A DNA stretch of 64,000 nucleotides, from assembly GCF_054482595.1 (NCBI RefSeq), contig NZ_CM137008.1; one strand, given 5' to 3'. The translations under genes were made by a program, and so were the position numbers. Every line of letters starts with the position of its first letter. The stretch's first letter is position 1. Positions 2,902 through 56,477 of this stretch are shown here, piece by piece. The notes under the pieces were generated by a model, which made no database searches, was not told the origin of the DNA, and was given only the letters and a program-made list of their open reading frames with translations.

Positions 2902-3468
2902 TTATTTGACCAGCTCAGGTGTTACCTGACTCACCGCATTGGTGTAGTAAGGCGCACCCCAGCCCGGTTCCGGCCAGAATGCACCATAGCCGTAATCCCA
3001 CAGGTTATAGGTGGTATTAACCACTTCTCTCAAATGCCACACCTGGATGCCCTGCATATTCACTTCCAGGAAGTTATACGGGACTTTATTGATAAAGCCT
3101 GGTTGTTCACCCTGAATGGTGCCGAGGATGGTAACAAAGTGATTACGATAGTTCACTGGGTCAAGGAAGCCGCTTTGTCTGGCGAGCAGTCGGCCCTGAT
3201 AGTTGGCTTCAATATCAGGCTTCGCATAGCTATCCAACGGTAATACAGCGATTTCTAACAACGTATCCGTTTTGCCATTGATAACGTTGATAACCTTCCC
3301 ACCAAAGCGCGCTTGTTGACCAACATATAACCCCGGCTGGTTATGAACAGCAACAAAACTTTTTTGAATATCAGGTTGGTTATTGCCTTTGATATTTTGC
3401 GGAATTGAACTACATGCGGCAAGCAAAAATGAAAGGCTGAGTATGAGTGCACCTTTTGTCATGTTCAT
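2902..3468 (-). CDS. slp: Starvation-inducible outer membrane lipoprotein Slp
   Basis: 188 aa from MNMTKGALILSLSFLLAACSS (lipobox LAAC); AAGGA ribosome-binding site upstream of the ATG at 3468; the longer ORF-track start at 3633 was rejected. Confidence 0.9.
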   Translation of the reverse strand: MNMTKGALILSLSFLLAACSSIPQNIKGNNQPDIQKSFVAVHNQPGLYVGQQARFGGKVINVINGKTDTLLEIAVLPLDSYAKPDIEANYQGRLLARQSGFLDPVNYRNHFVTILGTIQGEQPGFINKVPYNFLEVNMQGIQVWHLREVVNTTYNLWDYGYGAFWPEPGWGAPYYTNAVSQVTPELVK

Positions 3469-3714
3469 GTTACTATCCTTATCAACAAATATTAAAACCA
3501 TAATAGATATTTCTTTATAGTTTTCATCTGATTCTGAGGCGATATGCCTGATAGTAACGTAAACCTGTCTGATGTTTATATCCCTTCTGTTTAGTTCAAT
3601 TCCGTTATTTTGGGGCGTGGCATGAGTATCCATCGCCCCATAATATAACCCTTTGTTTTAAAATTACATAAAATCTATTTTTATTCAAGGATTATAAAGT
3701 GCTAATAATCAATA

Positions 3715-7345: not shown

Positions 7346-7699
7346 TTAACTACAAGTGTTCTTACTGTCTACGGAACAATTTTGTCTGGCCAGGTTGCGG
7401 ACAATCACCTGAACCTTTTCCTGTTCGCATCGCCAGGCCTGCTCAATAATTTTCGCGGCCCATGATGGAATATGCGGTGATAAGCGGTAATGAACCCACT
7501 TACCCTGCTTGCGATCCAGCAACAAACCGCTTTCACGAAGAAGCGCCAGATGGCGGGAGATCTTGGGCTGCGACTGGTCGAGAGCAGTGCAGAGATCACA
7601 GACGCATAACTCTCCCAGCTCGCTGAGCAGTAAAACGATGCCCAGACGGGTTTCATCGGCAAGAATTTTGAACAGTTGGATGGGTAACAGAAATGACAT
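7346..7699 (-). CDS. arsR: ArsR/SmtB-family arsenic-responsive repressor
   Basis: 117 aa; helix-turn-helix with metal-binding ELCVCDLC motif; first gene of arsRBC. Confidence 0.95.
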
Positions 7700-7849
7700 A
7701 TTGCGCTCCTGATTGTTGCAGGTAGTGTCTCTCTTCGAAGTGGATAAGTCAAAAACATATATGGTTTAACGAATGCGTATGTGCAGAGGAAGGTAATAGG
7801 TGTGAATTTTGAGTTGGCTATTCATTTGAAAGGAGGTCTGAATCAGGAC

Positions 7850-7940
7850 GTAAAAAAACCGACTTTGCGTCGGTTTTTTACTTTCCAGCCCTGAGTTGGT
7901 GGCTCTGGCTGGAGTGAGAATGCCCACATCTAACGGTTCA
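7850..7940 (-). ncRNA. agrA: AgrA/AgrB-family antisense small RNA, arsR-proximal copy (less complementary to the dinQ leader)
   Basis: ~90 nt repeat unit with core ctgagttggtggctctggctggagtgag; ends on the minus strand in hairpin ccgac-N-gtcgg plus U-run (7853-7880). Assignment of agrA versus agrB between the two copies is uncertain. Confidence 0.45.
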
Positions 7941-8081
7941 ATACTATTAGCCAGTGGCTAACATTGCAAGCGTTAGCGATTTCTTCAGCTGGCGGAGGGG
8001 GCACTTCGGTATATATCGCAGTGACGATTTATATACTTTCACTGGGTCATCGTCATATTAAGCCTTGTCCGAATCCGGACG

Positions 8082-8172
8082 TAAAAAAACCGACTTCGCG
8101 TCGGTTTTTTTACTGTTCAGCCCTGAGTTGGTGGCTCTGGCTGGAGTGAGATAGCCATCATCTAACGCATCA
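8082..8172 (-). ncRNA. agrB: AgrA/AgrB-family antisense small RNA, dinQ-proximal copy (more complementary to the dinQ 5' leader)
   Basis: Second repeat copy ~232 bp from the first; its complement pairs with dinQ leader 8334-8365 (ctggccggagtgagatagtcgtcatctaac) with about 3 mismatches; same hairpin plus U-run terminator (8088-8112). Confidence 0.45.
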
Positions 8173-8228
8173 ATGCTAATACCATACTGAAACTATTGCA
8201 AGGACGTGCTGGTTTTATAACCTGCATG

Positions 8229-8248
8229 TACTGTATGATTATCCAGTT
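8229..8248 (+). promoter_or_regulatory. Putative LexA box in the dinQ promoter
   Basis: tactgtatgattatccagtt = CTGT-N8-CCAG, an imperfect SOS box (consensus CTGT-N8-ACAG), ~190 bp upstream of the dinQ ORF. Confidence 0.5.
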
Positions 8249-8439
8249 AGCTCTGAGGCATTTTCACTCTGGCAATGCGCATAAACGCTTTCAAAGTCCT
8301 GGTCAGAAGTACGGGTGGTGCCGTTAACTGATGCTCTGGCCGGAGTGAGATAGTCGTCATCTAACAATGAGACATGCACCGTGACAGGCAGTGGATGAGT
8401 AAGCGGATGCATTCTCACTCCATCGCATGGAGAAAACGG

Positions 8440-8523
8440 GTGATTGATAAAGCAATCATCGTTCTTGGGGCGTTAATTGCGCTGCTGGAACTGATCCGCT
8501 TTCTGCTTCAGCTTCTGAACTGA
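8440..8523 (+). CDS. dinQ: DinQ type I toxin, small single-transmembrane peptide
   Basis: GTG-initiated 27-codon ORF encoding (M)IDKAIIVLGALIALLELIRFLLQLLN; lies between the agr repeats and gor. Confidence 0.85.
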   Translation: MIDKAIIVLGALIALLELIRFLLQLLN

Positions 8524-8539
8524 TAGCGGAAACGTAATT

Positions 8540-8575
8540 AAGGGCTAAGAGCACACTACTCTTAGCCCTTTAACA
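8540..8575. terminator. Bidirectional intrinsic terminator between dinQ and gor
   Basis: Perfect 12 bp stem aagggctaagag / ctcttagccctt with a 7-8 nt loop, between convergent genes. Confidence 0.6.
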
Positions 8576-8576
8576 T

Positions 8577-9929
8577 TTAACGCATGGTCACGAACTCTTC
8601 TGCCGCCGTTGGGTGAATGGCGACGGTATTATCGAAGTCTTTTTTGGTTGCACCCATCTTCAGCGCCACCGCGAAGCCCTGCAACATTTCGTCCATACCA
8701 AAGCCAATGCCGTGAATACCGACAATCTTCTCTTCTGGCCCAACGCACACCAGCTTCATGCGGCACGGCTGGCGGTGAGTGGTGACGGCGGTATACATCG
8801 CGGTGAAAGAGGATTTATACACTTTCACCTGATCGTCGCCATACTGCTCGCGCGCCTGCGGTTCCGTTAAACCAACAGTACCAATCGGCGGATGGCTGAA
8901 GACCACGGTCGGAATGTTGCTGTAATCCAGATGCTCATCCGGCTTGTTATTAAACAGGCGTTCAGAGAGACGGCGACCCGCTGCAACTGCCACCGGTGTC
9001 AGTTCTACTGCACCCGTGTTATCGCCCACCGCGTAAATACCTTCAACGTTGGTGTTTTGATATTTATCGACGACGATATAGCCTTTTTCGTTGGTTTTAA
9101 CGCCAGCGGCTTCGAGGTTGATGTTGTCATTGGCAGGCTCGCGGCCAATCGCCCAAATCAGGCAATCCACCGTTTCACTGCGACCATCTTCCAGCTCCAG
9201 CGTCAGGCTACCATCGGCATTTTTCACTACCGCTTTCGGGATGGCGTTGGTGTGCAACTGCGGGCCTTCGGCGTTCATCACTTCGACCAGCGTTTCAGAG
9301 ATCATCGGGTCGAAGCTGCGCAGCGGCGCATGTTTACGCACAAACAGATGCGTTTTCGCGCCGAGGCCGTTAATCACGCCAGCCAGCTCAACGGCGATGT
9401 AACCCGCGCCAACAACCGCCACACGCTCTGGCAAAGCAGGAAGGGCAAAGAAACCATCAGAATCAATACCGTATTCCACGCCCGGAATATCCGGGTGGCT
9501 CGGACGACCGCCGGTGGCGATCAGAATATGATCGGCTGTGATGGTTTCACCGTTAACTTCCAGCGTTTTGGCATCAACGAAGCGGGCAAAGCCTTTGATT
9601 ACATCAACGTTATTTTTACCGAGCACGTTTTCATAGGAAGTATGAATACGGTCGATATAGGCGGTACGGCTGGCGATCAACGTTTCCCAGTTGAATTTAT
9701 TGATAGTGGTATCAAAACCATAATCCGGGCCGTACATATGGATCGCTTCACGGATTTGCGCCGCGTGCCACATCACTTTCTTCGGTACGCAGCCGACGTT
9801 CACGCAGGTGCCGCCCAGCTCTTTGGCTTCAATCAGCGCGCATTTCTGACCGTACATAGCCGCGCGGTTGATGGAGGCGATACCGCCGCTGCCGCCGCCG
9901 ATGGCGATGTAATCATAGTGTTTAGTCAT
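8577..9929 (-). CDS. gor: Glutathione reductase
   Basis: 450 aa; FAD-binding GGGSGG motif and redox-active disulfide [13 protein letters not shown]. Confidence 0.97.
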
Positions 9930-42965: not shown

Positions 42966-44195
42966 TCAGGGCCAACGTTTAATGATGATGGATGTATTAA
43001 TGCCGCCAAAGGCAAAGTTGTTACTCTGCAAAAACTCACAATCAACCTTGCGGGCTTCATGCATGATGTAATCCAGCGCGCCACAATTCGGGTCTGGTTT
43101 ATTCAGGTTTAGCGTAGGCGCAAACCAACCTTCGCGCATCATTTGCAGACTCATCCAGGCTTCGAGCGCGCCACAGGCACCAAGCGTATGACCAAAATAA
43201 CTTTTCAGCGAGGAGAGCGGCACATTATCACCGTAAATGGTTGCTGTCGCCAGACTTTCTGCCATATCACCGCGATCGGTCGCCGTACCATGCGCTGAAA
43301 TATAGCCGATATCTTGTGCGCTTAACCCGGCGATTTTCAGCGATTGCTCCATACAATACTGCATGGTTTCGCGCTGCGGCTGGGTAATATGTGCCGCGTC
43401 GCAGTTAGTCGCAAAGCCGACGATTTCACCGTAAATGGTCGCGCCGCGCGCTTTGGCGTGCTCCAGTTCTTCGAGAATGAGCGTACCTGCGCCTTCACCA
43501 ATCACCAGCCCGTCGCGGTTTTCATCGAACGGTGAAGGTGTGGTTTTCGGCGCATCATTGTGCTGGCTGGTGGCGAAAAGCGTATCAAATACCGCTGCTT
43601 CTGAAGGACATAACTCTTCGGCACCACCAGCAACCATCACCGTTTGATAACCGTGGCGAATGGCTTCCCACGCATAACCGATTGCCTGGCTGCCGGAAGT
43701 ACAGGCGCTGGAGGTTGGGATCACCCGCCCGCGCAGGCCGAAAAAGAGGCCAGTATTAACGGCGGTGGTGTGCGGCATCATCTGCACATAGGTGGTGCCA
43801 GTGATGTTATTGGTGTGCTTTTCCGTCAGCATGGTGGCGAACTCGCTTACCGGGCCGGTACTGCCGGTCGATGAACCGTACGCAATGCCCGTTTCGCCGC
43901 TGGTTAATATCGGATCGCCAATCAACCCTGCCTGCTCTAACGCCAGCTCGCTGGCACGGGTCGACATTTGCGACACGCGGCCCATCGCACGGATACGCTT
44001 GCGGGTGTAGTGCTCCGGTAGCGTGAAATCATCAACAGGCGCGCCAAGCAGGGTGTGCAGCCCGTCGTAGACCTGCCACTCCGGCATTTTGCGCACCGCA
44101 TTTTCATACGCCAGTAAGCGTGCAGAAACGTCCTGCCAGTTTTCACCAAAGGCAGTCACGCCACCCATTCCTGTAATCACTACGCGACGTGTCAT
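42966..44195 (-). CDS. apeR: Beta-ketoacyl-ACP synthase (KAS I/II-like) of the aryl polyene-type cluster
   Basis: 409 aa; active-site Cys in SSACTSGSQ and His motifs HGTAT and GHTLGACG; letter assignment by position in the conserved apeB-apeR order. Confidence 0.75.
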   Translation of the reverse strand: MTRRVVITGMGGVTAFGENWQDVSARLLAYENAVRKMPEWQVYDGLHTLLGAPVDDFTLPEHYTRKRIRAMGRVSQMSTRASELALEQAGLIGDPILTSGETGIAYGSSTGSTGPVSEFATMLTEKHTNNITGTTYVQMMPHTTAVNTGLFFGLRGRVIPTSSACTSGSQAIGYAWEAIRHGYQTVMVAGGAEELCPSEAAVFDTLFATSQHNDAPKTTPSPFDENRDGLVIGEGAGTLILEELEHAKARGATIYGEIVGFATNCDAAHITQPQRETMQYCMEQSLKIAGLSAQDIGYISAHGTATDRGDMAESLATATIYGDNVPLSSLKSYFGHTLGACGALEAWMSLQMMREGWFAPTLNLNKPDPNCGALDYIMHEARKVDCEFLQSNNFAFGGINTSIIIKRWP

Positions 44196-44923
44196 AACAT
44201 CCCTCCGTTGATGGAAATAACCTGGCGGGTGACGTAACCCGCAATATCAGACATTAAATAACTGGCAAGCCCGGCAACTTCTTCCGCCTGGCCCATACGT
44301 TTCATGGGGATCATCGACATTGCCTCTTTCAGAGCGCTCTCTTCCATTTCGATCATCCCGGTATCAATAAGCCCTGGCGCGATGCAATTGACGGTGATTT
44401 TGCGCTTTGCGAGTTCGATAGCCAGCGCTTTTGTTGCGCCGATAATTCCGGCTTTGGCAGCGCTGTAATTCACCTGGCCGCGATTGCCCATTACGCCGGA
44501 AACCGAGGACAGCGTGATGATGCGCCCACCCTGGCGCGCGCCGATCATTGGCATAATGCACGGCTGAATGACGTTGTAGAAACTGTCGAGATTGGTGTGG
44601 ATCACCGCATCCCAGTCGTCATCGCTTAAAGCCGGAAAAGCGGCATCGCGGGCGATCCCGGCGTTACTGACCACGCCGTACCAGGCACCGTGTTGCGCGA
44701 TCTCATGCTCCAGCACTTCCCGACACTGTTCGCGGTTTGCGACGTCGAAACTGAGCAAACGCCCGTTACCCCCGTTGGCGACAATGGCATTCAGCGTTTC
44801 CTGAGCGCCTGTGGCGTCACGGTGATAGTGAACGCCAATGTTAAAGCCGTCTGCCGCCAGTTGGCAGGCGATGGCGCGACCAATGCCTTTGCTGGCACCA
44901 GTAACCAGAACTGAACGACTCAT
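44192..44923 (-). CDS. apeQ: 3-oxoacyl-ACP reductase (SDR, FabG-like)
   Basis: 243 aa; Rossmann TGASKGIGRAIA; catalytic YSAAK. Confidence 0.75.
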   Translation of the reverse strand: MSRSVLVTGASKGIGRAIACQLAADGFNIGVHYHRDATGAQETLNAIVANGGNGRLLSFDVANREQCREVLEHEIAQHGAWYGVVSNAGIARDAAFPALSDDDWDAVIHTNLDSFYNVIQPCIMPMIGARQGGRIITLSSVSGVMGNRGQVNYSAAKAGIIGATKALAIELAKRKITVNCIAPGLIDTGMIEMEESALKEAMSMIPMKRMGQAEEVAGLASYLMSDIAGYVTRQVISINGGML

Positions 44924-45387
44924 CAGGACGCTCCTTGTTGAAACAGGGTGGTAAGTTCTTCCGCGGTCGGCTGGAAGGTGTTAATGCGGCCCGTCGCCTC
45001 GCCGTCGTTGATGCTGCACTCAAAACTGCCGAAGCGATCGTCCTGCATCAGCAGTTTGACGGTAATGGTCAGCGTCTGGCCTGCGGGCAGAATGCCAGCG
45101 GCGCAAAGCAATTCACGCGCGCCCAGTATCATCCCTAACTCAATACTGTTTTTGCCCTGCTGGTGGCGATGCCAGCCAGACCAGACGCCGACGGTTTGCG
45201 CCATCAGTTCAAGGGCAAACCAGCCAGGGAGATTGCCGTCCGGGTCGAGAAACGGTGCCAGTACGCCACTGGGCGAAACCGTCACGCGGCACACCGCGCT
45301 GTCATCGCTGACGCTCACCACGTCTTCCAGCAGTAACATGGGCGCGTCGTGGGGCAGATAAGCGCCGGGGGATAAATAGTGGCTCAC
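44923..45387 (-). CDS. apeP: Hotdog-fold 3-hydroxyacyl-ACP dehydratase (FabA/FabZ-like)
   Basis: 154 aa hotdog-fold protein between the reductase and ketosynthase genes. Confidence 0.65.
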   Translation of the reverse strand: MSHYLSPGAYLPHDAPMLLLEDVVSVSDDSAVCRVTVSPSGVLAPFLDPDGNLPGWFALELMAQTVGVWSGWHRHQQGKNSIELGMILGARELLCAAGILPAGQTLTITVKLLMQDDRFGSFECSINDGEATGRINTFQPTAEELTTLFQQGAS

Positions 45388-46562
45388 GAAACCCTCCCGA
45401 GCAGAATGCTGGCGTTATTGCCGCCAAAGGCGAAGGAATTGGACAGGATCACCGGACGTGCCAGCGGCTGCGGTTTTTCGATAATGCCGCAGGGTGGCAG
45501 CGTGGGATCGCGTGGCGACAGGCTGAAATCTTGGGCGGGCAGCGGTAAATCACGCTGTAAGATCAACATACTGATTGCTGCTTCGGTAATGCCCGCCGCG
45601 CCCAGCGTGTGGCCGGTCAAATGTTTGGTGGAGCTGCACGGTACGCGTTCGCCAAACAGGGCGTTAACCACCATCGATTCAATCTGGTCGTTGAGTTGCG
45701 TGGCGGTGCCGTGCAGGTTGATATAGCCGACGTCATCTGGCGTAAGCTGCGCATCGGTCAGTGCCTGATTAATGGCGCGGATCGCCCCTTCGCCCTGCGG
45801 ATGCGGGGCCGAAATATGGTAAGCGTCACTCGATTCACCAACGCCCAGCAATGCGATGGGCTGCGGTTCGCGGGTTAATAACATCAGCCCCGCGCCTTCG
45901 CCAATGGTGATACCTGCGCGGTCACGACCGAACGGCTGACATAAAGTTGGCGAGAGCGATTCGAGGCTGTGAAAACCGTTAATCGGCATCCGGCTCAGGG
46001 TGTCTGCGCCACCCACAATGGCGGCATCGACCAGCCCCGTCTCGATAAGCCTGCGCCCGCTGATCATCGCTCTGGCGCTGGAGGAGCAGGCGGTTGAAAG
46101 GGTATAGGCCGGGCCGTCGAGCGCCAGCCAGTGGCTGAGAAAACGCGACGGATCGCCAAGTTCCTGTTGTGCGTAGTGCCATGTGGTGCTCGGCAGCCCG
46201 TGGGTGCGCAGGTTAACGTGCGTGTCGCCTTCATGCAGGCCGGAGGTGCTGGTGCCAAGTACAATCGCGATGCGCTCGCGACCATATTTCGCTATAGCGT
46301 CATCAACCTGCGGCTGGAGCTGCGCCAGCGCCGCCAGCAGGATCTGATTGTTGCGCGAGCGATGCGCAGCGAATTTTTCCGGGATAAGCGGAAGCTCGCC
46401 ATCCACGCCAGCCAGGACCGCCTGCGGATGCCCCTGCAACCAGCCTGCGCGTGGGCGCATTCCGGGGGCGACACCGCGAGCCAGGTTGGCTGCGATTTCG
46501 TCAAGATTATTTCCCAGGGCGTTGATCATGCCGACGGCGGAAATATAAATCATATCAGTCAC
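45384..46562 (-). CDS. apeO: Beta-ketoacyl-ACP synthase (catalytic ketosynthase subunit)
   Basis: 392 aa; Cys in LSTACSSS; His in HGTATQLND and GHTLGAAG. Confidence 0.75.
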   Translation of the reverse strand: MTDMIYISAVGMINALGNNLDEIAANLARGVAPGMRPRAGWLQGHPQAVLAGVDGELPLIPEKFAAHRSRNNQILLAALAQLQPQVDDAIAKYGRERIAIVLGTSTSGLHEGDTHVNLRTHGLPSTTWHYAQQELGDPSRFLSHWLALDGPAYTLSTACSSSARAMISGRRLIETGLVDAAIVGGADTLSRMPINGFHSLESLSPTLCQPFGRDRAGITIGEGAGLMLLTREPQPIALLGVGESSDAYHISAPHPQGEGAIRAINQALTDAQLTPDDVGYINLHGTATQLNDQIESMVVNALFGERVPCSSTKHLTGHTLGAAGITEAAISMLILQRDLPLPAQDFSLSPRDPTLPPCGIIEKPQPLARPVILSNSFAFGGNNASILLGRVS

Positions 46563-47139
46563 CTAAGTATTGAATGGTGATGTGGTATTTAAAGACATGC
46601 TGTTCAATGCTGATTGGCACGCGTTTGCCCTTGCGATTCAGATAGGTGATTTCCGTGACCAGCTTGCCGCTGGCGTTACGCAGCTCGCGTTTGTCACCGT
46701 TGTCGCGAAGTGTCCAGCCAGTGGGAAGTTGCGGTTGCCAGGCGCTAATCGGCCAGTGGCTGAGCATTACGTCAGCCAGCACCTGACTTGCGGGCGGCAA
46801 CTGTGGGACGACGATGGATTGCTCGGCGCGTAGCCCTTGCGCATCGTAGGTCAACAGAAACAGGCGAATGCCGACCGACGACAGCCCGGCAAGGGTGATT
46901 TTCTGGTCGTCGGCGTTAAGCATCACTAACAGCGACTGGGTTTTGCCGTTGAAGCTGCCGGTCAACAGTTGCTGGGAATTGACGGCGGGTGAAATCCCTG
47001 GTGCCGGCAGCGTGATGCGCGTGCCAGGTTGCAGCCACGCCTGCGGGCGGCCTTCCTGTTCCGGTTGCGAGTGGCTACAGCCGGTGAGGATAAGCGTAGC
47101 GGTCAGGGCGAGCGCTCGCCAGAATGTGGGTTTGATCAT
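46555..47139 (-). CDS. apeN: Lipoprotein of the aryl polyene-type cluster
   Basis: 194 aa; signal peptide with lipobox LTGC. Confidence 0.6.
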   Translation of the reverse strand: MIKPTFWRALALTATLILTGCSHSQPEQEGRPQAWLQPGTRITLPAPGISPAVNSQQLLTGSFNGKTQSLLVMLNADDQKITLAGLSSVGIRLFLLTYDAQGLRAEQSIVVPQLPPASQVLADVMLSHWPISAWQPQLPTGWTLRDNGDKRELRNASGKLVTEITYLNRKGKRVPISIEQHVFKYHITIQYLGD

Positions 47140-49454
47140 TTTTTTGTTCTCTTTTTATCGGGCATCGCCAGCGGCGAAAGCAGGAAGGCGGTGAAAATAC
47201 CGCTCACCAGCACAATGCCAAAACTGCTGATGGCCTGGGTGGCGCTGAATACCAGCATTCCCAGCGTCAGCAAGGTGGTGAGCATTGCCAGCGTGATCGC
47301 CAGTAGCGAAGTTAATGGTGTACCGCGCGGATTACTGAAAAACAGCGTGTAGTTGATGCCGATGCCAAGCACCAGCACCAGCGCCAGCAGCGAAAAGAGA
47401 TTCACCGCCTGCCCGCTCATCGCCAGCACCGCCAGACCACAACCCAGCGAAAGCACCGAAGGTACAAGGCTGATAAGCCCTTTGCGCCAGCCGAGACGGG
47501 CCACTGCGCCGCAGGCAATCACCGCCAGCGCCACCAGCAACAAGCCGGTTAAGACATAACGGTAAAGCGCGAACAACTCATCAAAGGTGCTTTTGCGATC
47601 AACCCAGGCAATGCCGCAAGGGTAATATGTGGCGATTTCCTGCATCAACGCGCTACTTTTAACCCCTTCAACCGGCACCAGTACGCCGCTTTCGCCGTTT
47701 TCCAGCGTCAGCCACAGCAGACGCCAGCCTTCACTGGCGGGGCTTGCCAGCCATTCATCAACGTTCACTGGCATGGCGTTGAGATCCGGGTTCACTGCCG
47801 TCAGCCCGGCATTTTGCAGCGCTTTTGTTACTGTCGGGGCCGCCGTTTTCAGCAGTTGTAAATCTTCCTCCTGCCGCGCAAGGGAGTTCAGCGGAATGGT
47901 GCGGTAGTTGCTGATAAGCCCCTCTTTTTTCGCATACTCAAGTGAGGCGGTATATTTCTCCAGTCGCCGCAATGTTTGCTGTGGCGAATCGCCGTAAACC
48001 ACAAACCATTTTTGATCGACGCTTTGTCCGGTCAGGGCGGTAATGGCTTTCTCCTGGGTCAGAATATGCTGCGGCAGCGCCTGTAACTGCGAGATATCGT
48101 CATCGACGCGCAGCATTGACATCCCCGCCAGCGAAAACAGCGCCAGCGCGACGGGCAGACCCAGCGACAGTTTTTTATTGCGCCGCCACGCTGCCAGCCA
48201 GCGCAGCATCAGCGCCATCGCCGGAACCGGACGCACCGGCAGGCCACGGCACAGCCACGGATGCCAGAACAGGACGGTCAGACAGGAGGCGCTCAACCCG
48301 ACGGCGGCAAAAATCGCCATCTGGCGAATGCCGGGGAAGGGGGCGAGCATCATAATCAGATATGCCGCCACGGTGGTGAGCAGCGCCAGCAGCAGGGCAT
48401 TGCGTACTTTCGCCAGGCTTTGCCACGGCGAAACGTCGTTGCCGTGCACCATCCGCTCGGTGAGATAATAGAGCGTGTAGTCAGCGGAAATGCCGATAAC
48501 GCTCATGCTCATCACCAGCGTCATCAGGTGTAATTCACCGAAAATCAATAAAGTGGCGACCGTTCCCGCCAGCGCGCCGATGCCGATGGAAATCACGCAA
48601 AGCAGCAACGGGCGCAAAGAGCGGAACACCGCCACAATCAGCAATATCACCCCCAGCAGCGTTGCCACGCCCAGGGTTGAGATATCCTGCTTCGCCTGTT
48701 GGCTGGCGTAATCGCTGTAAAACACCGTGCCGCGCGAAAGCAGCTGCGCCTGCGGGTAACGCGTTTTCAGATCCTTTTCCAGCGTATTCAGGGTCGTGAT
48801 GAGCTGGTGGGTTTGCTGCATATCAAACGACGATCCCGCCAGTTCACCGTGCAGCAGATACCAGTAGTTGCCCTGGGGATCCTGCGTCACCAGCCAGCCG
48901 TCCATCAGCCGCAAACGCTGGCCGTTTTTCGCCATCGCCAGCTGCGAGCCGCGCATTAACATCAGCGGATCGTTTTGCAGCTCCTTGCCGCTTACCCCGG
49001 AGAACGCAGAATAAAGCTGGGAGAGGATCCACTGCGCCTGCGCTTCGCCGCCGTTTTGCAGGCGCGCGCGGGTGTCGGGGTCAATCAGGCCGTTGCGGTG
49101 CTGCCAGAAAAACGCTCCCCACGCTTGCTGGCTGGCGGCATCCATTGGCCCTTTAACGTCGCCGAGCGCAGCGGATTTTTGCAGCAGCGTCAGCCACTCC
49201 TGAGCGACCCTGGGATTAGCCTCTTTACCGGGGCTGACCAGCCACACCAGTTGGCGGTCCAGACGCTGCATAAAGCCGTCATTCAGCGCTGGGGGAATAT
49301 CGCCCATAGCCTGTTTGGGTAACATAGCCAGCACGCTACTGTTCAGCCGTGATTGCGGCAGCAGGATCAGCAACGCCGCCGCCATGACCAGGCAGACTAG
49401 CCCCCATAACAGCGCGGGGCGTTTACTGGGCGGCAAAACGTTGGCGTTCGTCAT
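47136..49454 (-). CDS. apeM: MMPL/RND-superfamily exporter
   Basis: 772 aa; two transmembrane bundles each followed by a large soluble domain; translationally overlaps its neighbours. Confidence 0.7.
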   Translation of the reverse strand: MTNANVLPPSKRPALLWGLVCLVMAAALLILLPQSRLNSSVLAMLPKQAMGDIPPALNDGFMQRLDRQLVWLVSPGKEANPRVAQEWLTLLQKSAALGDVKGPMDAASQQAWGAFFWQHRNGLIDPDTRARLQNGGEAQAQWILSQLYSAFSGVSGKELQNDPLMLMRGSQLAMAKNGQRLRLMDGWLVTQDPQGNYWYLLHGELAGSSFDMQQTHQLITTLNTLEKDLKTRYPQAQLLSRGTVFYSDYASQQAKQDISTLGVATLLGVILLIVAVFRSLRPLLLCVISIGIGALAGTVATLLIFGELHLMTLVMSMSVIGISADYTLYYLTERMVHGNDVSPWQSLAKVRNALLLALLTTVAAYLIMMLAPFPGIRQMAIFAAVGLSASCLTVLFWHPWLCRGLPVRPVPAMALMLRWLAAWRRNKKLSLGLPVALALFSLAGMSMLRVDDDISQLQALPQHILTQEKAITALTGQSVDQKWFVVYGDSPQQTLRRLEKYTASLEYAKKEGLISNYRTIPLNSLARQEEDLQLLKTAAPTVTKALQNAGLTAVNPDLNAMPVNVDEWLASPASEGWRLLWLTLENGESGVLVPVEGVKSSALMQEIATYYPCGIAWVDRKSTFDELFALYRYVLTGLLLVALAVIACGAVARLGWRKGLISLVPSVLSLGCGLAVLAMSGQAVNLFSLLALVLVLGIGINYTLFFSNPRGTPLTSLLAITLAMLTTLLTLGMLVFSATQAISSFGIVLVSGIFTAFLLSPLAMPDKKRTKK

Positions 49455-50028
49455 CGGTCAGTTGCGCTGGCGTCAGTTGATGTTGGGTAAGAGCAATATC
49501 GGTGCGATCGCCCTGTTTATCATTAAGTTGAATGCTCTCCAGATAGGTTTTCCCGGCGAGATCGATGGTGTTGAAAATTTTATCCAGCGGCGTGGTGGTC
49601 GGCGTCAGGCGCAGCGTCCAGCGGCCTTCGCCTTTGTCAGCAAATTCGACGCGGAAGTTTTGTTCCAGCACTTTGCGATCGGCCTGGAACAGCGCGCGCA
49701 GCAGGTGGTTAAACTGGAACATCTGCGGGTTGTTTTCTGCCGTGATGATTTGCGGCGGCTGACCGTTGATCACCTGCACCATGCGTTTATCATCCAGCAA
49801 TAGCTGCATGGGGAACGGTGAGGTTTGATCCCACAATAACCCCTGGTCGCGGGCGATCAACATCTGACCCTGAGATCGCAGCGGCTGCGGCAGATCTTTA
49901 ATCGTCCGGGTTTGATCAAAATGGGCGCGGATCACCGGTTGTTCGGTAAAGCGTTGCTGAAGATCGTCCAGGGTCAGGGCGCTCACAAACGGGCTAATCA
50001 GCAGCGCCAGCAGCGGTAAAAATTTCAT
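49423..50028 (-). CDS. apeL: LolA-like outer membrane lipoprotein carrier protein
   Basis: 201 aa with signal peptide; LolA-like size and fold inferred from sequence. Confidence 0.65.
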   Translation of the reverse strand: MKFLPLLALLISPFVSALTLDDLQQRFTEQPVIRAHFDQTRTIKDLPQPLRSQGQMLIARDQGLLWDQTSPFPMQLLLDDKRMVQVINGQPPQIITAENNPQMFQFNHLLRALFQADRKVLEQNFRVEFADKGEGRWTLRLTPTTTPLDKIFNTIDLAGKTYLESIQLNDKQGDRTDIALTQHQLTPAQLTDDERQRFAAQ

Positions 50029-50447
50029 GGTTTGACTCCCATGCGTTCAAACAGAATATCGGGGCTGACAAAGCACAGTTCGCGACTTTGCTCGTCGACC
50101 GCGACCTGAATGGTGTATCCGGTGGTGGCGCGTTTGCCCGTTTCGGCATCGAAAATCTGATAGCCAATCCGCAGACGGTTTTCGAACTCTTCGATATGCG
50201 CACGCACGCGGATGCGTTGCTCAAAGGTGAGGGCGTGGCGATATTTCACCCGCGCATCGACCACTGGCCACAAATAACCGGACTCTTTCATCTGCCGATA
50301 GCCGTAATTGAACTGGTTGAGCAGCGCCTCGCGGGCCACTTCAAAGTAGCGAAAATAGTTACCGTGCCAGGCCACGCCCATCATATCGACGTCGTGAAAG
50401 GGAATGGTCAGCTCGACTTCAGCGGTAAATCGGGGATCGTTAAGCAC
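50025..50447 (-). CDS. apeK: Hotdog-fold acyl-ACP/CoA thioesterase (4HBT family)
   Basis: 140 aa; …IPFHDVDMMGVAWHGNYFRYFE… is typical of 4HBT thioesterases. Confidence 0.7.
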   Translation of the reverse strand: MLNDPRFTAEVELTIPFHDVDMMGVAWHGNYFRYFEVAREALLNQFNYGYRQMKESGYLWPVVDARVKYRHALTFEQRIRVRAHIEEFENRLRIGYQIFDAETGKRATTGYTIQVAVDEQSRELCFVSPDILFERMGVKP

Positions 50448-50450
50448 CCT

Positions 50451-52127
50451 TTACTCCTTGTCCTGAATTTCCGGCAGTTGCCAGAAATCGAAAAAATTAA
50501 ACCAGTCGAGGGGCGACTGGAGCGCGTAATGTTCCAGACGCGCGGCGTAGTGGTCGATAGCGTTTTGCAGCGCCTGCTGGCGTTCGCCACGCGGCAGTTG
50601 CAGCGGGTCGGCAAAGCTTTCGCAGTGAATATGCAGCTTGCCGTGCTGGCGTAGGGCGAAAATCAGATTCACTGGGCAGCGCAAAATAGAGGCGAGAATA
50701 AACGGCCCCTGTGGGAAGGGCGCAGGCTGGCCCATAAACGGACTCCAGCAGACGCGCCAGTCGCCGCCGCGTTGCGGGGTGACGGCGATGCGGTCACCGA
50801 CAATCGCCACCCATTCGCCGTTATCCAGCTTCTCTTTCAGCAGGATGGCGGTTTCTGGGCCGATATCTGTTACCGGCATCAGGTTAATGCCTGCCTGAGG
50901 AGCCATCTCCTGCATTATCTGTTTAAAGCGTTGGGCGTTTTCGCTAAACACCAGCGCGTTAATGGTTTTGTAGCCCTGAATTTTTGCCAGCGCCCGGCAC
51001 ACTTCCACATCGCCAAGATGCGAGGCCAGCAGCAATTTGCCGCGCGGATCGCGGACGTCAAGCGCCGCTTCTGCGCCTGGCGCAAACAGCACATCACGCC
51101 CCAGTTGTAGCTCGCCGCGCCAGCTGGCGATTTTGTCGAGCATGGCATTACCGAAACGTAGAAAGTGCTGATAGCTGTTGAGTTTTGCCGCCTGTGGTTG
51201 ATGCTGTCGTACACGGGCGAGCCAGTCTTGCGACGCTTTGCGCGCACGAGAAGCAGTGAGCCAGTAGACGCCCACCACCGGGTAAAGCAGCGCGCTAAAC
51301 GCCGTTCTTCCCAGCAGACGCCAGACCAGCAGCATCAGGCGCATTCCCCATAATCCTTTCACTTCACTCTGCCGCGCCCAGTGGCTGGAAGAGCGGCGCA
51401 TCAGCAGTGAAGGAATACGCGGTAACATGCCGAAAAATAGACGCGTGTGCATGAGCGAGATGCGGACGTTATCTTTCAGGGCATCAAAATGCGAAAGCCC
51501 GTCCAGTGGATAGGTGACGCGGGTCGGCACGAAATAGCTGGTGTTTCCCTGCCAGTAGAGGCGCACCATCACTTCAGTGTCGAAATCCATCCGCTTGCCG
51601 ATGGTGGCGTGTTTTGCCAGTTGCAGCGTTGGCGCAACCGGATAAACGCGAAAGCCGCACATGCTGTCTTTCAGTTGCAGGGAGAGCGTTTCGATCCATA
51701 CCCAGACGTGGGTGACCCAGCGCCCGTAAAGCCGTGAGCGGGGGATGGAGTCATCGTAAATTGGCTGGCCGGAGATCAGCGCCGCAGGGTGTTGTTCAGC
51801 GACTGCCAGCAGTTTGGGGATATCTTCAATCGCATGTTGACCGTCAGCATCCACCTGCACTGCATGGCTGAACCCTGCGTCTGCCGCTGCCTGTAAGCCA
51901 CGCATCACTGCCGCGCCTTTACCTGCGTTTTCTGCTAAGCGAATTAAGGTCACGCCAGGCTGTTCGCTAACCAGATTATCCAGTTGCTGTTGCGTGGCGG
52001 CATCGCTGCCGTCGTCCACCACAATACAGGGGAGATTAAATGGCTTAAGACGCGCCAGCACGCCCGGCATCATCGCGCCGTGGTTATAGCAGGGGATCAA
52101 CACGCAGGGAGAAAAGTTTACCGACAT
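50451..52127 (-). CDS. apeJ: Bifunctional family-2 glycosyltransferase / LpxL-like acyltransferase
   Basis: 558 aa; N-terminal GT2 (CVLIPCYNHG…VVDDGSDA), C-terminal lipid A acyltransferase-like domain. Confidence 0.7.
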   Translation of the reverse strand: MSVNFSPCVLIPCYNHGAMMPGVLARLKPFNLPCIVVDDGSDAATQQQLDNLVSEQPGVTLIRLAENAGKGAAVMRGLQAAADAGFSHAVQVDADGQHAIEDIPKLLAVAEQHPAALISGQPIYDDSIPRSRLYGRWVTHVWVWIETLSLQLKDSMCGFRVYPVAPTLQLAKHATIGKRMDFDTEVMVRLYWQGNTSYFVPTRVTYPLDGLSHFDALKDNVRISLMHTRLFFGMLPRIPSLLMRRSSSHWARQSEVKGLWGMRLMLLVWRLLGRTAFSALLYPVVGVYWLTASRARKASQDWLARVRQHQPQAAKLNSYQHFLRFGNAMLDKIASWRGELQLGRDVLFAPGAEAALDVRDPRGKLLLASHLGDVEVCRALAKIQGYKTINALVFSENAQRFKQIMQEMAPQAGINLMPVTDIGPETAILLKEKLDNGEWVAIVGDRIAVTPQRGGDWRVCWSPFMGQPAPFPQGPFILASILRCPVNLIFALRQHGKLHIHCESFADPLQLPRGERQQALQNAIDHYAARLEHYALQSPLDWFNFFDFWQLPEIQDKE

Positions 52128-52501
52128 AGGCGGATCTTCCCGCTACTGGCGGTGTGGCGGGCGTCACCGTCGTGACGCTGATAGCTAAAGCTCAGAATCT
52201 GGCGTTCTTCCTGCCAGTTAAGCGCGAGCGTGACGCGGTTTTCCGGCAGCAACGGAGACTGGAATTTTATGTTCTGAATGGAGTGAAAACGCCAGCCAGG
52301 CGCGAGCAGATTGAGCGCGTAGCTCATCGCCCAGTCGATTTGCGCAACTCCTGGGAGTAATGGTTGCACGGCAAAATGACCGCGAAACCAGAACAGATCC
52401 GCCCTGAGATGCAGAACAATTTCAAGGTGATTCGTTTGTGCCTGATGGCGCTCGATTTCATGGGGCTTCATGAAATAACTCCTGTAATTGCGCATAGACA
52501 C
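52118..52501 (-). CDS. apeI: Hotdog-fold dehydratase (FabA/FabZ-like)
   Basis: 127 aa hotdog-fold protein; second dehydratase-like gene in the cluster. Confidence 0.6.
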   Translation of the reverse strand: MSMRNYRSYFMKPHEIERHQAQTNHLEIVLHLRADLFWFRGHFAVQPLLPGVAQIDWAMSYALNLLAPGWRFHSIQNIKFQSPLLPENRVTLALNWQEERQILSFSYQRHDGDARHTASSGKIRLCR

Positions 52502-53858
52502 GCTTGTTCATACTGTTTACTGGCATTTCATCAATAACGCGCCAGTAACGCGGAATAGCAACTGGCTCCAGCGTCGGGCGCAGTAAACGCCGCCAGGTCA
52601 TTTCCTGGCTATGCCCGCCGCCGTTCTGCCATTGCAGATGAGCTTCGTCATCCAGCACCAGCAAAACGCCTATGCTCTGACGCCCGCCGCGCGTAACGGG
52701 AACTGCCGCCGCCTCGCGAATGCCGTCCAGCGCCAGTAGACGTTGTTCTACTTCCTGGAGTGAAATACGTTTTTCTTCAATCTTAACGATGCGCCCACGA
52801 CGCCCCATCAGATGGAACTGACCATCTTCGCTAAGCTGTAAGATATCGTCGAGTAACAGGCCGTTATCTTCCGCTATCAGCGGTGAAAAGAGGCGAAAGG
52901 CATCGCCTTCGGCTTGGAACTGCATACCTGGGAGGGGTAGCCAGCGGCGTTGCTCTTGTTCGCGGTAACGCCAGGCGATGACGCCGGTTTCCGTGCTGCC
53001 GTAGATTTCATCAGGCCAGACGCGCAGCCAGCTTGCGGTGTGTTGTACATCCTGCCACGGCAGCTCACCGCCAGCAGAGAGAAGCACCTGAACGGGTGGC
53101 GGAGAAAGCTGGGTATCCAGGCGCTTCAAAAATGCCGGGCTGCTGATGAAGATATAGCGATGCTGATGACTCAACGCGGCAAACTGTTCGACATACCAGA
53201 GCATGGCGGCGTGCAGCGGTAATCCCAACGCCATGGGCAGGAAAACACGAAAAGTCAGGCCGTACAAATGCTGCGGCAATACGGAACCGACGACACGACA
53301 ACCCGCCAGACGTGCGCCTAATCGTTCAGCCAGCAGTTCTGCTTCACGATCCAGCAAATGAACAGGTTTAATCACCCGTTTCGGCTGTCCCGTGGAACCG
53401 GAGGTAAACAGCTCGATAAAAGCCTCTGGCGCTATAGCGGCAAAGGTGAAGGATTGTGTCGCGACTTGTGGGGAACTTGCTACCAACAGCCATGAACCTT
53501 GCCAGTTAAGTTCGCTGTCGCTAAGCACACCATCGAACAGTTCACGTTGCTCGTTAAGCTGGATGACACGGTTATGCCCCGGAAGCACCGGTGTTTTTCC
53601 GGCGTGTAGCGTGGCGAGCAGGGCAACGATAAACAGATAGCTGTTCTCAAAGCACAGCGCCCAGCGTTCACCCGGCTGTTGCTGCAAGCGGCAGATAAGT
53701 TGCGCGACATCGTGACGCAAATCGCCCAGCGTCCAGGTGCTTTCGTCCAGCCACGCAATGGGCGTGTCATCAGGGCGTGGCGCAGTCAGCCAGCGTGCAA
53801 GCGGTAAGGTCTGCTTCATGCGCGATCTCTTTTCATCACCTGACGGCGCACCAGCCAT
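52458..53858 (-). CDS. apeH: AMP-dependent synthetase/ligase (adenylating enzyme; putative aryl starter activation)
   Basis: 466 aa; AMP-binding motif FTSGSTGQPK; ORF-track start overlaps neighbours by ~43 nt, so the true start may be downstream. Confidence 0.7.
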   Translation of the reverse strand: MAGAPSGDEKRSRMKQTLPLARWLTAPRPDDTPIAWLDESTWTLGDLRHDVAQLICRLQQQPGERWALCFENSYLFIVALLATLHAGKTPVLPGHNRVIQLNEQRELFDGVLSDSELNWQGSWLLVASSPQVATQSFTFAAIAPEAFIELFTSGSTGQPKRVIKPVHLLDREAELLAERLGARLAGCRVVGSVLPQHLYGLTFRVFLPMALGLPLHAAMLWYVEQFAALSHQHRYIFISSPAFLKRLDTQLSPPPVQVLLSAGGELPWQDVQHTASWLRVWPDEIYGSTETGVIAWRYREQEQRRWLPLPGMQFQAEGDAFRLFSPLIAEDNGLLLDDILQLSEDGQFHLMGRRGRIVKIEEKRISLQEVEQRLLALDGIREAAAVPVTRGGRQSIGVLLVLDDEAHLQWQNGGGHSQEMTWRRLLRPTLEPVAIPRYWRVIDEMPVNSMNKRVYAQLQELFHEAP

Positions 53859-54397
53859 TCACCAGCCATTAATGTTCCCATCAACAAATAAGCAATCATG
53901 CCGTTCCAGGCGGTCCATAACGACATATCGGCATAAAGCGCGGTAAAGAGGGCAATTCCACCGTTAATGATGAAAAAGCCGCACCAGATTTGCGTGACGT
54001 GGCGGGTATAGCGCACGCCCTTTTCCGGGAGGTCTGGCTCCTGCAACCGCGCCAGCCGCTCAACTATCGGCATTGCCGACCACAGCGAACCGCCAAAAAC
54101 CGCCAGCATGACCGCGTTAACCACTACCGGGTAAAACAGCAGTAGCTGGTGCGTTTTCAACATAAAGCTGGCGACACATAATGCGATGCCCACGACAGCG
54201 ACGAGTTGCGTGACGGCTTGTAAAGGCCCCGCCTGGCGACGGGTCTGGCGCAGACGCAACAAAAGCAGCAACGCCATTAGCGGTAACAGCCAGTGCAGGC
54301 CGTTATGCGCTAAGCCAAACCAAATCACAAACGGCCAGGCGAGCAGCAATAATCCAGTCAGCAGCTTAATCATCGGTAGCGAGCGAATGCCCGACAT
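53816..54397 (-). CDS. apeG: Integral membrane protein of the aryl polyene-type cluster
   Basis: 193 aa with several transmembrane segments. Confidence 0.55.
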   Translation of the reverse strand: MSGIRSLPMIKLLTGLLLLAWPFVIWFGLAHNGLHWLLPLMALLLLLRLRQTRRQAGPLQAVTQLVAVVGIALCVASFMLKTHQLLLFYPVVVNAVMLAVFGGSLWSAMPIVERLARLQEPDLPEKGVRYTRHVTQIWCGFFIINGGIALFTALYADMSLWTAWNGMIAYLLMGTLMAGEWLVRRQVMKRDRA

Positions 54398-54401
54398 CAG
54401 A

Positions 54402-54653
54402 TCAGGCTTCTTGTAGCAGGCGTTCTACAGCCTCGACGACATCCTGGACTGTACGCACGGCTTTAAACTCTTCCGGCTTGATTTTCTTACCGGTTTTCTT
54501 TTGCAGGTGCACAATCATGTCAACGGCGTCGATGCTGTCCAGTTCCAGATCTTCGTACAGGCGCGCTTCAGGTTTGATGTCCTGCGGATCGATTTCAAAC
54601 AGCTTAACCAGCAGGGCTGAGACTTCCTGATAGACGGTTTGTTGTTCTGTCAT
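54402..54653 (-). CDS. apeF: Acyl carrier protein
   Basis: 83 aa; phosphopantetheine attachment motif LELDSIDAVD. Confidence 0.8.
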   Translation of the reverse strand: MTEQQTVYQEVSALLVKLFEIDPQDIKPEARLYEDLELDSIDAVDMIVHLQKKTGKKIKPEEFKAVRTVQDVVEAVERLLQEA

Positions 54654-54664
54654 GATGGCTTTCC

Positions 54665-54922
54665 TCAGGCACGTTGCGCAGCAATGAAAGAGGCCAGAGT
54701 GGCGACGGAGAAAAAGTGCTGACGCATCTCTTCGCTTTCCGCAGAGAGCACGATGCCGTACTCATTTTTTACTGCCAGTCCCAGTTCCAGGGCATCGATA
54801 GAGTCCAGCCCTAAACCGTCGCCAAACAGCGGCGCGTCGGTATCGATATCATCAGGCGTCAACTCGTCCAGATTGAGGGTGCTGATGATGAGGTTTTTAA
54901 TTTCCAGATAAAGCGCTTGCAT
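54665..54922 (-). CDS. apeE: Acyl carrier protein
   Basis: 85 aa; motif LGLDSIDALE. Confidence 0.8.
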   Translation of the reverse strand: MQALYLEIKNLIISTLNLDELTPDDIDTDAPLFGDGLGLDSIDALELGLAVKNEYGIVLSAESEEMRQHFFSVATLASFIAAQRA

Positions 54923-55736
54923 TATTTATTCCTGAGAGAGGTAAACAACCTTGTTGTAATTGAAGCAAAAGATGCCGGTTTAACTGCCTTGCTGCCAGCG
55001 CCGGTTCTTGTGAAGTTGCATCGTAAAATTTATTGATTTCAACCCGACCATGGACTGCAACCGTAAAAAACGGCCGGTCAGGTGGAACGTCATACCATTT
55101 ACTTTGTTTATCCAGCAGATGCTCGCTACAGCCGATCGTCACGATGCGTAAATCGCTGGCACAGCGCACGGCAATATTCGCCGCCCCGCGCTGCAGCGTC
55201 ATTTTTTCACCGGGCTTCGTTCGCGTGCCTTCGGGGAAAATCAGGATAGTGTCACCCTGTGCCAGTCGCTGTTGGCAGCGGGGTAACAGGGTTTCAGCTT
55301 CGCTGTTGATTAAATAATCTGCCGCCCGCACGACGCCGCCAAGAAAAGGATTTTTTAACAGCGCGCTTTTCACCAGGCAGTCAGTTTCTGGCATGACTGA
55401 CGCCAGCAGCACGTAATCGATCAGCGTGGGATGATTGGCTACGACGAGGCAACCGCGTTCCTGACGTAAAATTTCAGCGCCATCAATACGATAATCCAGC
55501 ACGCCAAGCCCTTTCGCGACAGTTAAAAACAGGCGAAAACTGGCGGCAATGCTGCGACGCGCCAAACGACGGCGGCGGGAAGTATCCCACACCAAAACTA
55601 ACAATATGTTAAACCACACGACAGAAAGCAGCAGGCCGCCGAGACCAAACAGGGCAAAACATAACCCGGTCATGACCAGTCGCCAGGTCCACTCCAGACG
55701 TGACAGCAGCTTACTCATCCACGGCTCCAGCGCCAC
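54897..55736 (-). CDS. apeD: Lysophospholipid acyltransferase (PlsC/LPLAT family)
   Basis: 279 aa; H(X4)D motif in VVANHPTLIDYVLL and FPEGTRT motif. Confidence 0.7.
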   Translation of the reverse strand: MALEPWMSKLLSRLEWTWRLVMTGLCFALFGLGGLLLSVVWFNILLVLVWDTSRRRRLARRSIAASFRLFLTVAKGLGVLDYRIDGAEILRQERGCLVVANHPTLIDYVLLASVMPETDCLVKSALLKNPFLGGVVRAADYLINSEAETLLPRCQQRLAQGDTILIFPEGTRTKPGEKMTLQRGAANIAVRCASDLRIVTIGCSEHLLDKQSKWYDVPPDRPFFTVAVHGRVEINKFYDATSQEPALAARQLNRHLLLQLQQGCLPLSGINNASALSGN

Positions 55737-56461
55737 TGTACGCGCTCGCCAGGCAGTGAAAATGTGTCCGCATTTTGTAAATAGTGCTGTAAAAACAACA
55801 TGCTTTGCGGCAGTGTTGTTTCATTACCCGCAATGGCTGACTGCGTTTCACATTGCCACTCATCGCCAGCTTCAATCACCAGCGCGACGGCGTACGGCCA
55901 GGTCGGCATTTCTGCGGGCAGTTGTGGATGATAGAACTCAGGCAGAAAGCCATCAAAATCGACCATCAGCACGCGCTGGTATCCCGCTTGTAACAGGCTA
56001 AGCACTTCACACAAACCTTGCTGGAAAGTGTCGCGACCAGCAGAAAGCGATGACGAAACGATCGGCTGTTTGGCCGCAATGGTCAGGTTACCCACGGAAG
56101 AGTTGTGTACTGAAAGTGCAAAGTCGGTCGGAGAAAGCGCCTGTTCGGTTGCCAGTGCATGAACAATGCGGTAATTGCGCTCCAGTTCGCCATGACGACT
56201 GGTATACAAAACGGCGTCTGGCTGATGGCGGCGTAGCATTGCCAGACCGCATTCAACAGCCAGTTTGCTGCCTGAACTGAGGCGGCGGGCGGTCATCATT
56301 GGCAGTTCACTTAATTTTGCCAACGGCGCGGCAGGGTCAATCGCCCACGGCTGGCGCGACCATGCTTGCCATTGCTGCGCTTCGCTAAGTCCAGGCGCCA
56401 GTGCCTGCCAGTCGGTAATATTTAATGTAAATTTCATCAACGCGCGCCCGCGGTAAACCAA
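55715..56461 (-). CDS. apeC: Ketosynthase-like protein lacking the active-site Cys (chain-length-factor-like partner)
   Basis: 248 aa; ketosynthase N-terminal-like fold without a Cys-His-His triad. Confidence 0.6.
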   Translation of the reverse strand: MVYRGRALMKFTLNITDWQALAPGLSEAQQWQAWSRQPWAIDPAAPLAKLSELPMMTARRLSSGSKLAVECGLAMLRRHQPDAVLYTSRHGELERNYRIVHALATEQALSPTDFALSVHNSSVGNLTIAAKQPIVSSSLSAGRDTFQQGLCEVLSLLQAGYQRVLMVDFDGFLPEFYHPQLPAEMPTWPYAVALVIEAGDEWQCETQSAIAGNETTLPQSMLFLQHYLQNADTFSLPGERVQWRWSRG

Positions 56462-56477
56462 AATTATTAAGTGACGA

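Follow-up and report, generated by a model that had tools for sequence, protein, structure and literature searches.

The tisB/istR-1 system of Escherichia coli is an SOS-induced type I toxin-antitoxin (TA) module in which the toxin gene is LexA-repressed, the inert primary mRNA is activated by 5' processing, and a standby-ribosome mechanism operates. Its single functional antitoxin is a divergent, trans-encoded antisense RNA that acts with RNase III cleavage. The chromosomal dinQ/agrAB module was experimentally characterised in K-12 by Weel-Sneve et al. 2013 (PMC3567139) and Kristiansen et al. 2016 (PMC5066626). In K-12 the dinQ promoter is repressed by LexA, and DNA damage gives rise to a primary dinQ mRNA of ~330 nt that is translationally inert, with pairing between leader sequences 1 and 2 (1:2) leaving the Shine-Dalgarno (SD) sequence locked. 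Loss of the first 43 nt leads to 2:3 pairing, the SD opens and the 27-aa membrane-depolarising DinQ peptide is made; a constitutive antisense RNA of ~82 nt, encoded upstream on the opposite strand, pairs with the leader through its 5' 32-34 nt, re-closing the SD hairpin and forming an RNase III substrate (PMC3567139, PMC5066626). Northern blots and primer extension revealed both agr RNAs, and the start site was mapped (PMC3567139). The distal RNA, AgrB, is the cognate antitoxin (30/31 nt), pairing with leader positions G88-A119 and triggering RNase III cleavage, while the proximal AgrA (25/31) is inactive (PMC3567139, PMC5066626) and has been treated as a degenerate, non-functional duplicate (PMC3567139).

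The plasmid dqlB/agrB modules of IncX3 pOXA-484 (PMC12317039) and IncL pOXA-48 (PMC12365149) likewise combine a DinQ-like toxin with an upstream, divergent AgrB-like RNA, complementary in this case to ~35 nt of the 5' UTR. Compensatory mutation established the pairing specificity: antitoxin function is lost with a 4-nt mismatch and regained with a compensatory change (PMC12365149). Unlike the chromosomal locus described here, these are addiction modules that have one agr gene each and whose specificity patches are unrelated in sequence, and LexA control of them is unreported.

The window analysed in this study is a 64-kb (64,000-nt) stretch of DNA. Judged by its sequence, the region 7700-8576 is the chromosomal dinQ-agrAB type I TA module of E. 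coli, already known, and as a locus it offers nothing new, being a textbook SOS-induced type I TA module. The segment is flanked by arsR (7346-7699, minus strand) and gor (8577-9929, minus strand, convergent with dinQ); it matches E. coli XH990 at 100% identity and K-12 at 96.8%, and the K-12 record annotates the syntenic gene order arsR, agrB, agrA, dinQ, gor. The original prediction of a dinQ/agrAB-type TA locus is borne out by two minus-strand matches to RF02891 (AgrB, antisense), the sole matches returned by an Rfam scan of the whole 64-kb window at the gathering threshold, by a DinQ family match and by K-12 synteny at 96.8% identity; together with the conserved LexA box, these establish the identity of the locus. 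It resembles the K-12 module (RF02891) in its orthologous position between arsR and gor, its identical DinQ peptide, its LexA operator, its leader switch elements, its sRNA promoters and terminators, and its two tandem agr genes divergent from dinQ. It differs from K-12 mainly by a patch of ~12 nt within each of three repeats, that is, in the leader and in both sRNAs, and in that the cognate RNA, distal AgrB in K-12, is predicted here to be the proximal one. The best explanation of the region is a dinQ-agrAB module whose functional antitoxin is, we infer with considerable confidence, the dinQ-proximal copy (8165..8083).

Two near-identical units had been proposed at 7846-7937 and 8078-8170, and they align with 83 of 94 columns identical and one 1-nt indel in a T-run. 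The true duplication is longer than first noted, spanning 7836-7970 and 8067-8202 with a period of ~231 nt, so that minus-strand promoters are included in it. Exactly two copies of a 28-mer, ctgagttggtggctctggctggagtgag, are present in the 64 kb (7891-7918 and 8123-8150; 0 expected by chance). The hairpins flanked by A- and T-runs are likewise present, a GC stem lying between an A-run and a T-run in both units: in the distal unit at ~7852-7880 (stem CCGAC...GTCGG) and in the proximal unit with arms at 8081-8094 and 8100-8113 that are 100% complementary. The distal (arsR-side) sRNA gene, positional orthologue of K-12 agrB, occupies 7852-7933 on the minus strand (Rfam AgrB 108.2 bits at 7933..7850; fold z-score −5.3; terminator hairpin present), and the proximal (dinQ-side) gene, positional orthologue of K-12 agrA, occupies 8083-8165 on the same strand (91.5 bits at 8165..8081; z-score −4.1; terminator hairpin present); both scores lie far above the RF02891 gathering score of 40. 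Each unit is predicted to yield a minus-strand RNA of ~82 nt with a strong terminator hairpin at its 3' end, and, as in other AgrB-type loci, both genes lie upstream of the dinQ mRNA, divergent from it and without overlap with the toxin transcript. A third, degenerate copy had been placed in the dinQ leader; it is found at 8333-8365, 75 nt 5' of the dinQ GTG, with 91% identity to the proximal unit and 82% (27/33) to the distal one.

The distal-unit promoter (7941-7969, minus strand) consists of a −35 element TTGCAA (7964-7969), a 17-nt spacer and a −10 element TAGTAT (7941-7946), with 7 nt to a +1 T at 7933; the proximal-unit promoter (8173-8201, minus strand) has the same −35 hexamer (TTGCAA, 8196-8201), a 17-nt spacer, a −10 element TAGCAT (8173-8178) and 7 nt to a +1 T at 8165. 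Both distal hexamers are the same as in K-12, and the proximal promoter stretch does not differ from the promoter region of K-12 agrA. These promoters and the terminators were read by eye from the sequence and compared with K-12; a generic promoter and terminator scan recovered neither agr promoter (each matches 8 of 12 hexamer positions, the threshold being 9) and missed the agr terminators too. That the repeats might instead be plus-strand terminators, 3' UTR elements or generic intergenic repeats, and not antisense RNA genes, is suggested by the A- and T-runs on both sides of the hairpins, which would permit termination in either direction. However, there is no plus-strand gene upstream of the units, arsR being on the minus strand; promoter hexamers with 17-nt spacing at the right distance occur on the minus strand only; the repeat is confined to this locus (at most 3 places per genome); and the K-12 agr RNAs were experimentally detected (PMC3567139). 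This alternative is therefore hardly credible, and the units are best read as antisense RNA genes.

The dinQ ORF (8440-8523, plus strand) begins with GTG and encodes 27 aa forming a single hydrophobic helix. Its product, VIDKAIIVLGALIALLELIRFLLQLLN, is the same as RefSeq dinQ WP_001295215.1 and the K-12 DinQ peptide, and the assignment of this short hydrophobic ORF to DinQ is confirmed by the NCBIfam equivalog model NF041472 (toxin_DinQ; 54 bits, cutoff 30); Pfam has no DinQ model, NCBIfam alone having one. In E. coli SMS-3-5 (locus L051, 1340-1426) the first stop codon is mutated and DinQ has 28 aa (...LLNW). The imperfect LexA box proposed upstream, at 8229-8248 (TACTGTATGATTATCCAGTT), is a predicted LexA site that matches the consensus TACTGTATATATATACAGTA at 15 of 20 positions, retains the CTG-N10-CAG arrangement, is the single best site in the 64-kb window and overlaps the −10 element of the dinQ promoter (TATGAT, 8234-8239). 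It is identical to the K-12 operator, for which a heterology index of 4.83 was given (PMC3567139).

The numbering of the K-12 transcript (GUG start = +195) was moved onto the window, a transfer justified by the lack of indels relative to K-12 from +1 to the GTG. The primary dinQ mRNA then extends over 8246-8575 on the plus strand, with +1 at 8246 and the +44 processing site at 8289 (fold z-score −5.3). An inverted repeat between the convergent dinQ and gor genes (8540-8570) forms a hairpin that would serve as a shared terminator and is a terminator-like site on the minus strand; the K-12 dinQ terminator was placed in this dinQ-gor hairpin region (PMC3567139). Antisense to the dinQ 5' UTR, RefSeq annotates a "hypothetical protein" of 57 aa, WP_001362224.1 (8239-8412, minus strand), in XH990 as well as in several further genomes. 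It has no Pfam or NCBIfam match, and the gene call, which covers the structured leader, is probably spurious.

The elements of the published leader model (PMC5066626) can be located in the window. In the predicted +1 fold, sequence 1 (8261-8273) pairs with 8339-8350; sequence 2 (8339-8351) lies inside the 32-nt antisense target repeat (8333-8364, corresponding to K-12 G88-A119), an element supported by its repeat family, its pairing with the sRNAs and the allele counts reported below; sequence 3 (8412-8423) pairs in the SD hairpin or, instead, with sequence 2; and sequence 4 (8427-8432) contains the Shine-Dalgarno GGAG and is the partner of sequence 3 in the closed SD hairpin. By the transferred numbering, the K-12 SD element G184-G187 lands on GGAG at 8429-8432. 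In minimum free energy predictions on the window sequence, the +1 RNA has 1:2 paired and the SD hairpin closed, the +44 RNA forms the 2:3 duplex, and the SD hairpin is closed once more when the leader is cofolded with either sRNA. The exclusive pairings 1:2, 2:3 and 3:4 thus reproduce, as predictions, all three published K-12 states. The locus shares its logic with tisB/istR-1, the standby ribosome of that system being replaced in dinQ by the 1:2 / 2:3 / 3:4 switch. No TisB/IstR homology was found: the gathering-threshold Rfam scan of the window gave AgrB alone and the NCBIfam match was to DinQ alone. On this sequence comparison, tisB/istR-1 and dinQ/agr are analogous, not homologous.

The target repeat also holds the W-type specificity patch, GATAGTCGTCATC, at 8349-8361, directly 3' of sequence 2. 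Comparison of this patch with 8409-8422 shows that the M- and C-type patches of other strains (GAATGC...; see below) would pair with GCATTCTCACTCC, an inverted repeat, and so bring the 2:3 duplex to a length of 13 perfect pairs. Leader alleles may also differ, then, in the ease with which the +44 mRNA opens its SD.

The original prediction held that the dinQ-proximal unit is the better pairing partner for the leader, and RNA duplex prediction agrees with it. Across the 32 positions of the target, the proximal unit forms 29 Watson-Crick (WC) and 2 GU pairs with 1 mismatch (duplex −57.6 kcal/mol, cofold ddG −39.5 kcal/mol), against 26 WC and 1 GU pair with 5 mismatches for the distal unit (duplex −45.0, cofold ddG −21.7 kcal/mol). 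The near-perfect complementarity between sRNA 5' end and toxin 5' UTR (about 31-34 nt) that is characteristic of the family is found here in the proximal unit. The energy calculation was calibrated on K-12, where AgrB works and AgrA does not, in vivo or in vitro (PMC3567139, PMC5066626): distal AgrB of K-12 gives 31 WC pairs and 1 mismatch of 32 (duplex −58.2, cofold ddG −39.3 kcal/mol), and proximal AgrA 25 WC and 4 GU pairs with 3 mismatches (duplex −42.7, cofold ddG −25.1 kcal/mol). By this calibration the window proximal unit behaves like AgrB and the distal unit pairs worse, in ddG, than the inactive AgrA, with the proviso that pairing energies gauge neither kinetics nor RNA abundance. 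The predicted partner in the window strain is therefore the reverse of the K-12 roles.

This suggests a mechanism in which the functional antitoxin of the window strain would be the dinQ-proximal copy, and not the arsR-proximal copy that K-12 nomenclature or Rfam would call AgrB. The ~12-nt patch of the W leader allele would match the proximal copy, and the distal copy would be an orphan or weak partner here, its patch being cognate to the leader allele of other strains. No other targets of such an orphan distal sRNA were found in the 64-kb window. The 5' end of the proximal RNA contains a predicted weak hairpin of 5 bp, which could slow binding; the 5' end of K-12 AgrB is open.

In a K-12-like arrangement, the arsR-proximal copy would be the working antitoxin and the dinQ-proximal copy a decayed duplicate. 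The arsR-proximal copy does sit at the K-12 agrB position and has the higher Rfam AgrB score (108 versus 91.5 bits), but that advantage stems from the 3' half and the terminator, not from the pairing region. Its 5 mismatches with the leader are clustered in the patch, and at −21.7 its ddG falls short of the −25.1 of K-12 AgrA, which is experimentally inactive (PMC5066626). We regard this arrangement as improbable. A second alternative, in which both antisense RNAs contribute, the proximal one acting on the active +44 mRNA and the distal one partly repressing the primary transcript (as reported for K-12 AgrA) or buffering dose, deserves more weight. In K-12 the full-length dinQ transcript was lowered by both sRNAs (PMC3567139), and the distal unit has an intact promoter and terminator; its ddG (−21.7) is still favourable, so some distal activity is possible. 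Two units are, moreover, kept in ~71% of genomes. On the other side, K-12 AgrA causes no change in SHAPE reactivity or translation of +44 dinQ (PMC5066626), and single-unit loci are common and apparently viable. A shared role of this kind is conceivable at a clearly lower probability than the assignment of the antitoxin function to the proximal copy, which is the reading followed below.

A single A-C mismatch interrupts the sRNA:leader duplex: the C at window position 8341 faces sRNA position 24, an A (complement of 8142 and 7910). K-12 and 7 of the 8 single-unit loci share the mismatch, and this conserved imperfection may matter for RNase III cleavage or for duplex kinetics.

The distribution of leader types was surveyed by searching 5,426 complete E. 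coli genomes with leader queries of 100 nt, matches being counted at ≥99% identity. An intact leader was present in 4603 of these genomes. Four alleles were counted: the K-12 type K (patch GAGAGTTCTTATC) in 1676 genomes, M (patch GAATGCCATTATC) in 1907, C (patch GAATGCCCACATC) in 246 and W, the type of the window (GATAGTCGTCATC), in 184, frequencies that are rough since the genome collection is biased and includes many K-12 laboratory derivatives. The 5' specificity patch of the distal unit of the window is of C type (sense strand GAATGCCCACATC), non-cognate to the W leader of the window; its cognate is a leader allele that other strains carry.

Twenty-eight loci were extracted from complete or species-representative genomes; 27 were intact and one, from ATCC 25922 (L029), was fused and promoter-less. 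Every intact locus (27/27) contained exactly one strong partner for its leader, at −51 to −66 kcal/mol, and the second unit, where present, gave −41 to −52 kcal/mol (27 intact loci, 17 distinct haplotypes). When leaders were permuted among the 17 haplotypes, the observed mean was reached in 0 of 5000 permutations. The cognate unit is distal for K and C leaders (5 loci) and proximal for M, M3 and W leaders (22 loci), an association drawn from the 27 intact sampled loci and not from all 5,426 genomes. E. albertii, Escherichia sp. E1V33 and a divergent species representative named E. coli each have one cognate unit, in the proximal position, and the E. albertii leader is the W allele, as in the window. 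The distal unit is carried by 3840 of the 5426 E. coli genomes (~71%), and a spread sample contained ~15% single-unit loci and ~15% fused promoter-less loci.

Across the single-unit loci (E. albertii included) and one dinQ-like (dql) locus, both sides are changed at 12 of 32 duplex positions, and the paired cells amount to 96.5%; in controls on this set, 0 of 500 shuffles matched and slid alignments were ~35% paired. With the arms being direct DNA repeats, such pairing covariation could be produced by gene conversion in the absence of selection, and covariation between gene-converted repeats does not count as separate evidence for it. As a proposed mechanism, conversion among the three copies would carry a patch from the target to either sRNA gene, or back, and keep the pairing intact, which would explain the lineage differences in cognate slot. 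We are inclined, with some reserve, to view agrA and agrB as two interchangeable antitoxin slots with at least four patch alleles, the cognate slot being proximal (M, W) or distal (K, C) and specificity being moved between slots by gene conversion. The only unit in E. albertii and in another Escherichia species is the proximal (AgrA) one, and it is cognate, so this slot would probably be ancestral.

One haplotype that could be misread as natural antitoxin loss was discarded. A single AgrA-like unit combined with a K-12-type leader, and hence no cognate, was seen in 8 of 19 metagenome contigs and in 1 contig from a metagenome-assembled genome (MAG) (L004, L005, L010, L012-L014, L019, L020 and L032). 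It occurs in none of the 5,426 complete genomes, where the best single-piece match was 98.1%, and it was rejected as short-read assembly collapse of the tandem repeat.

The fused loci, which make up ~15% of complete E. coli genomes, have an agr unit joined straight to the leader repeat, as in ATCC 25922 (912-996). The deletion that produces the fusion removes the dinQ promoter, the LexA box and the agr promoter and leaves the DinQ ORF intact. The same fused layout is present in a dinQ-like copy adjoining ISEcp1 in plasmid pS34_2 (L030, 2465-2552). Recombination between the repeats thus looks like a recurrent route of inactivation for the module. A dql module with an AgrB-like RNA was also seen in a MAG labelled Lachnospiraceae (L037, 3081-3168 and ~3370-3480). 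Its patch is unrelated to those of dinQ yet complementary to its own leader (28 WC, 2 GU and 2 mismatches), and the contig probably entered the MAG as contamination of enterobacterial or plasmid origin.

Other features of the window were taken from the XH990 annotation. The heme uptake genes chuA/chuS lie at 1-2155, and their presence indicates that the strain does not belong to phylogroup A or B1. A hicAB type II TA pair is located at 30455-31086, and a large cluster of ACP, ketosynthase, MMPL and LolA genes, apparently aryl-polyene-like, at ~42966-57500. This cluster is not known to occur in K-12.

The dinQ sequences of E. coli and Shigella have been described as almost identical to that of MG1655 (PMC5066626), and, of two agr candidates, the T1TAdb algorithm selects the one with the higher stability (PMC8594479). 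The searchable literature yielded no explicit description of leader alleles or of a switch in cognate slot, an absence that is no proof of novelty. The residual interest of the locus lies in the predicted reversal of the AgrA and AgrB roles in the window lineage and, apparently, in many others. Naming of agr genes by position or by Rfam score would give the antitoxin role to the wrong gene in the window strain and, judging from the 27-locus sample, in roughly half of the E. coli genomes with an intact locus. If allele switching is true, it would bear on the 2013 view of AgrA as a degenerate, non-functional duplicate, and dinQ-agrAB would provide a compact natural example of antisense specificity drifting or jumping between paralogous sRNA genes.
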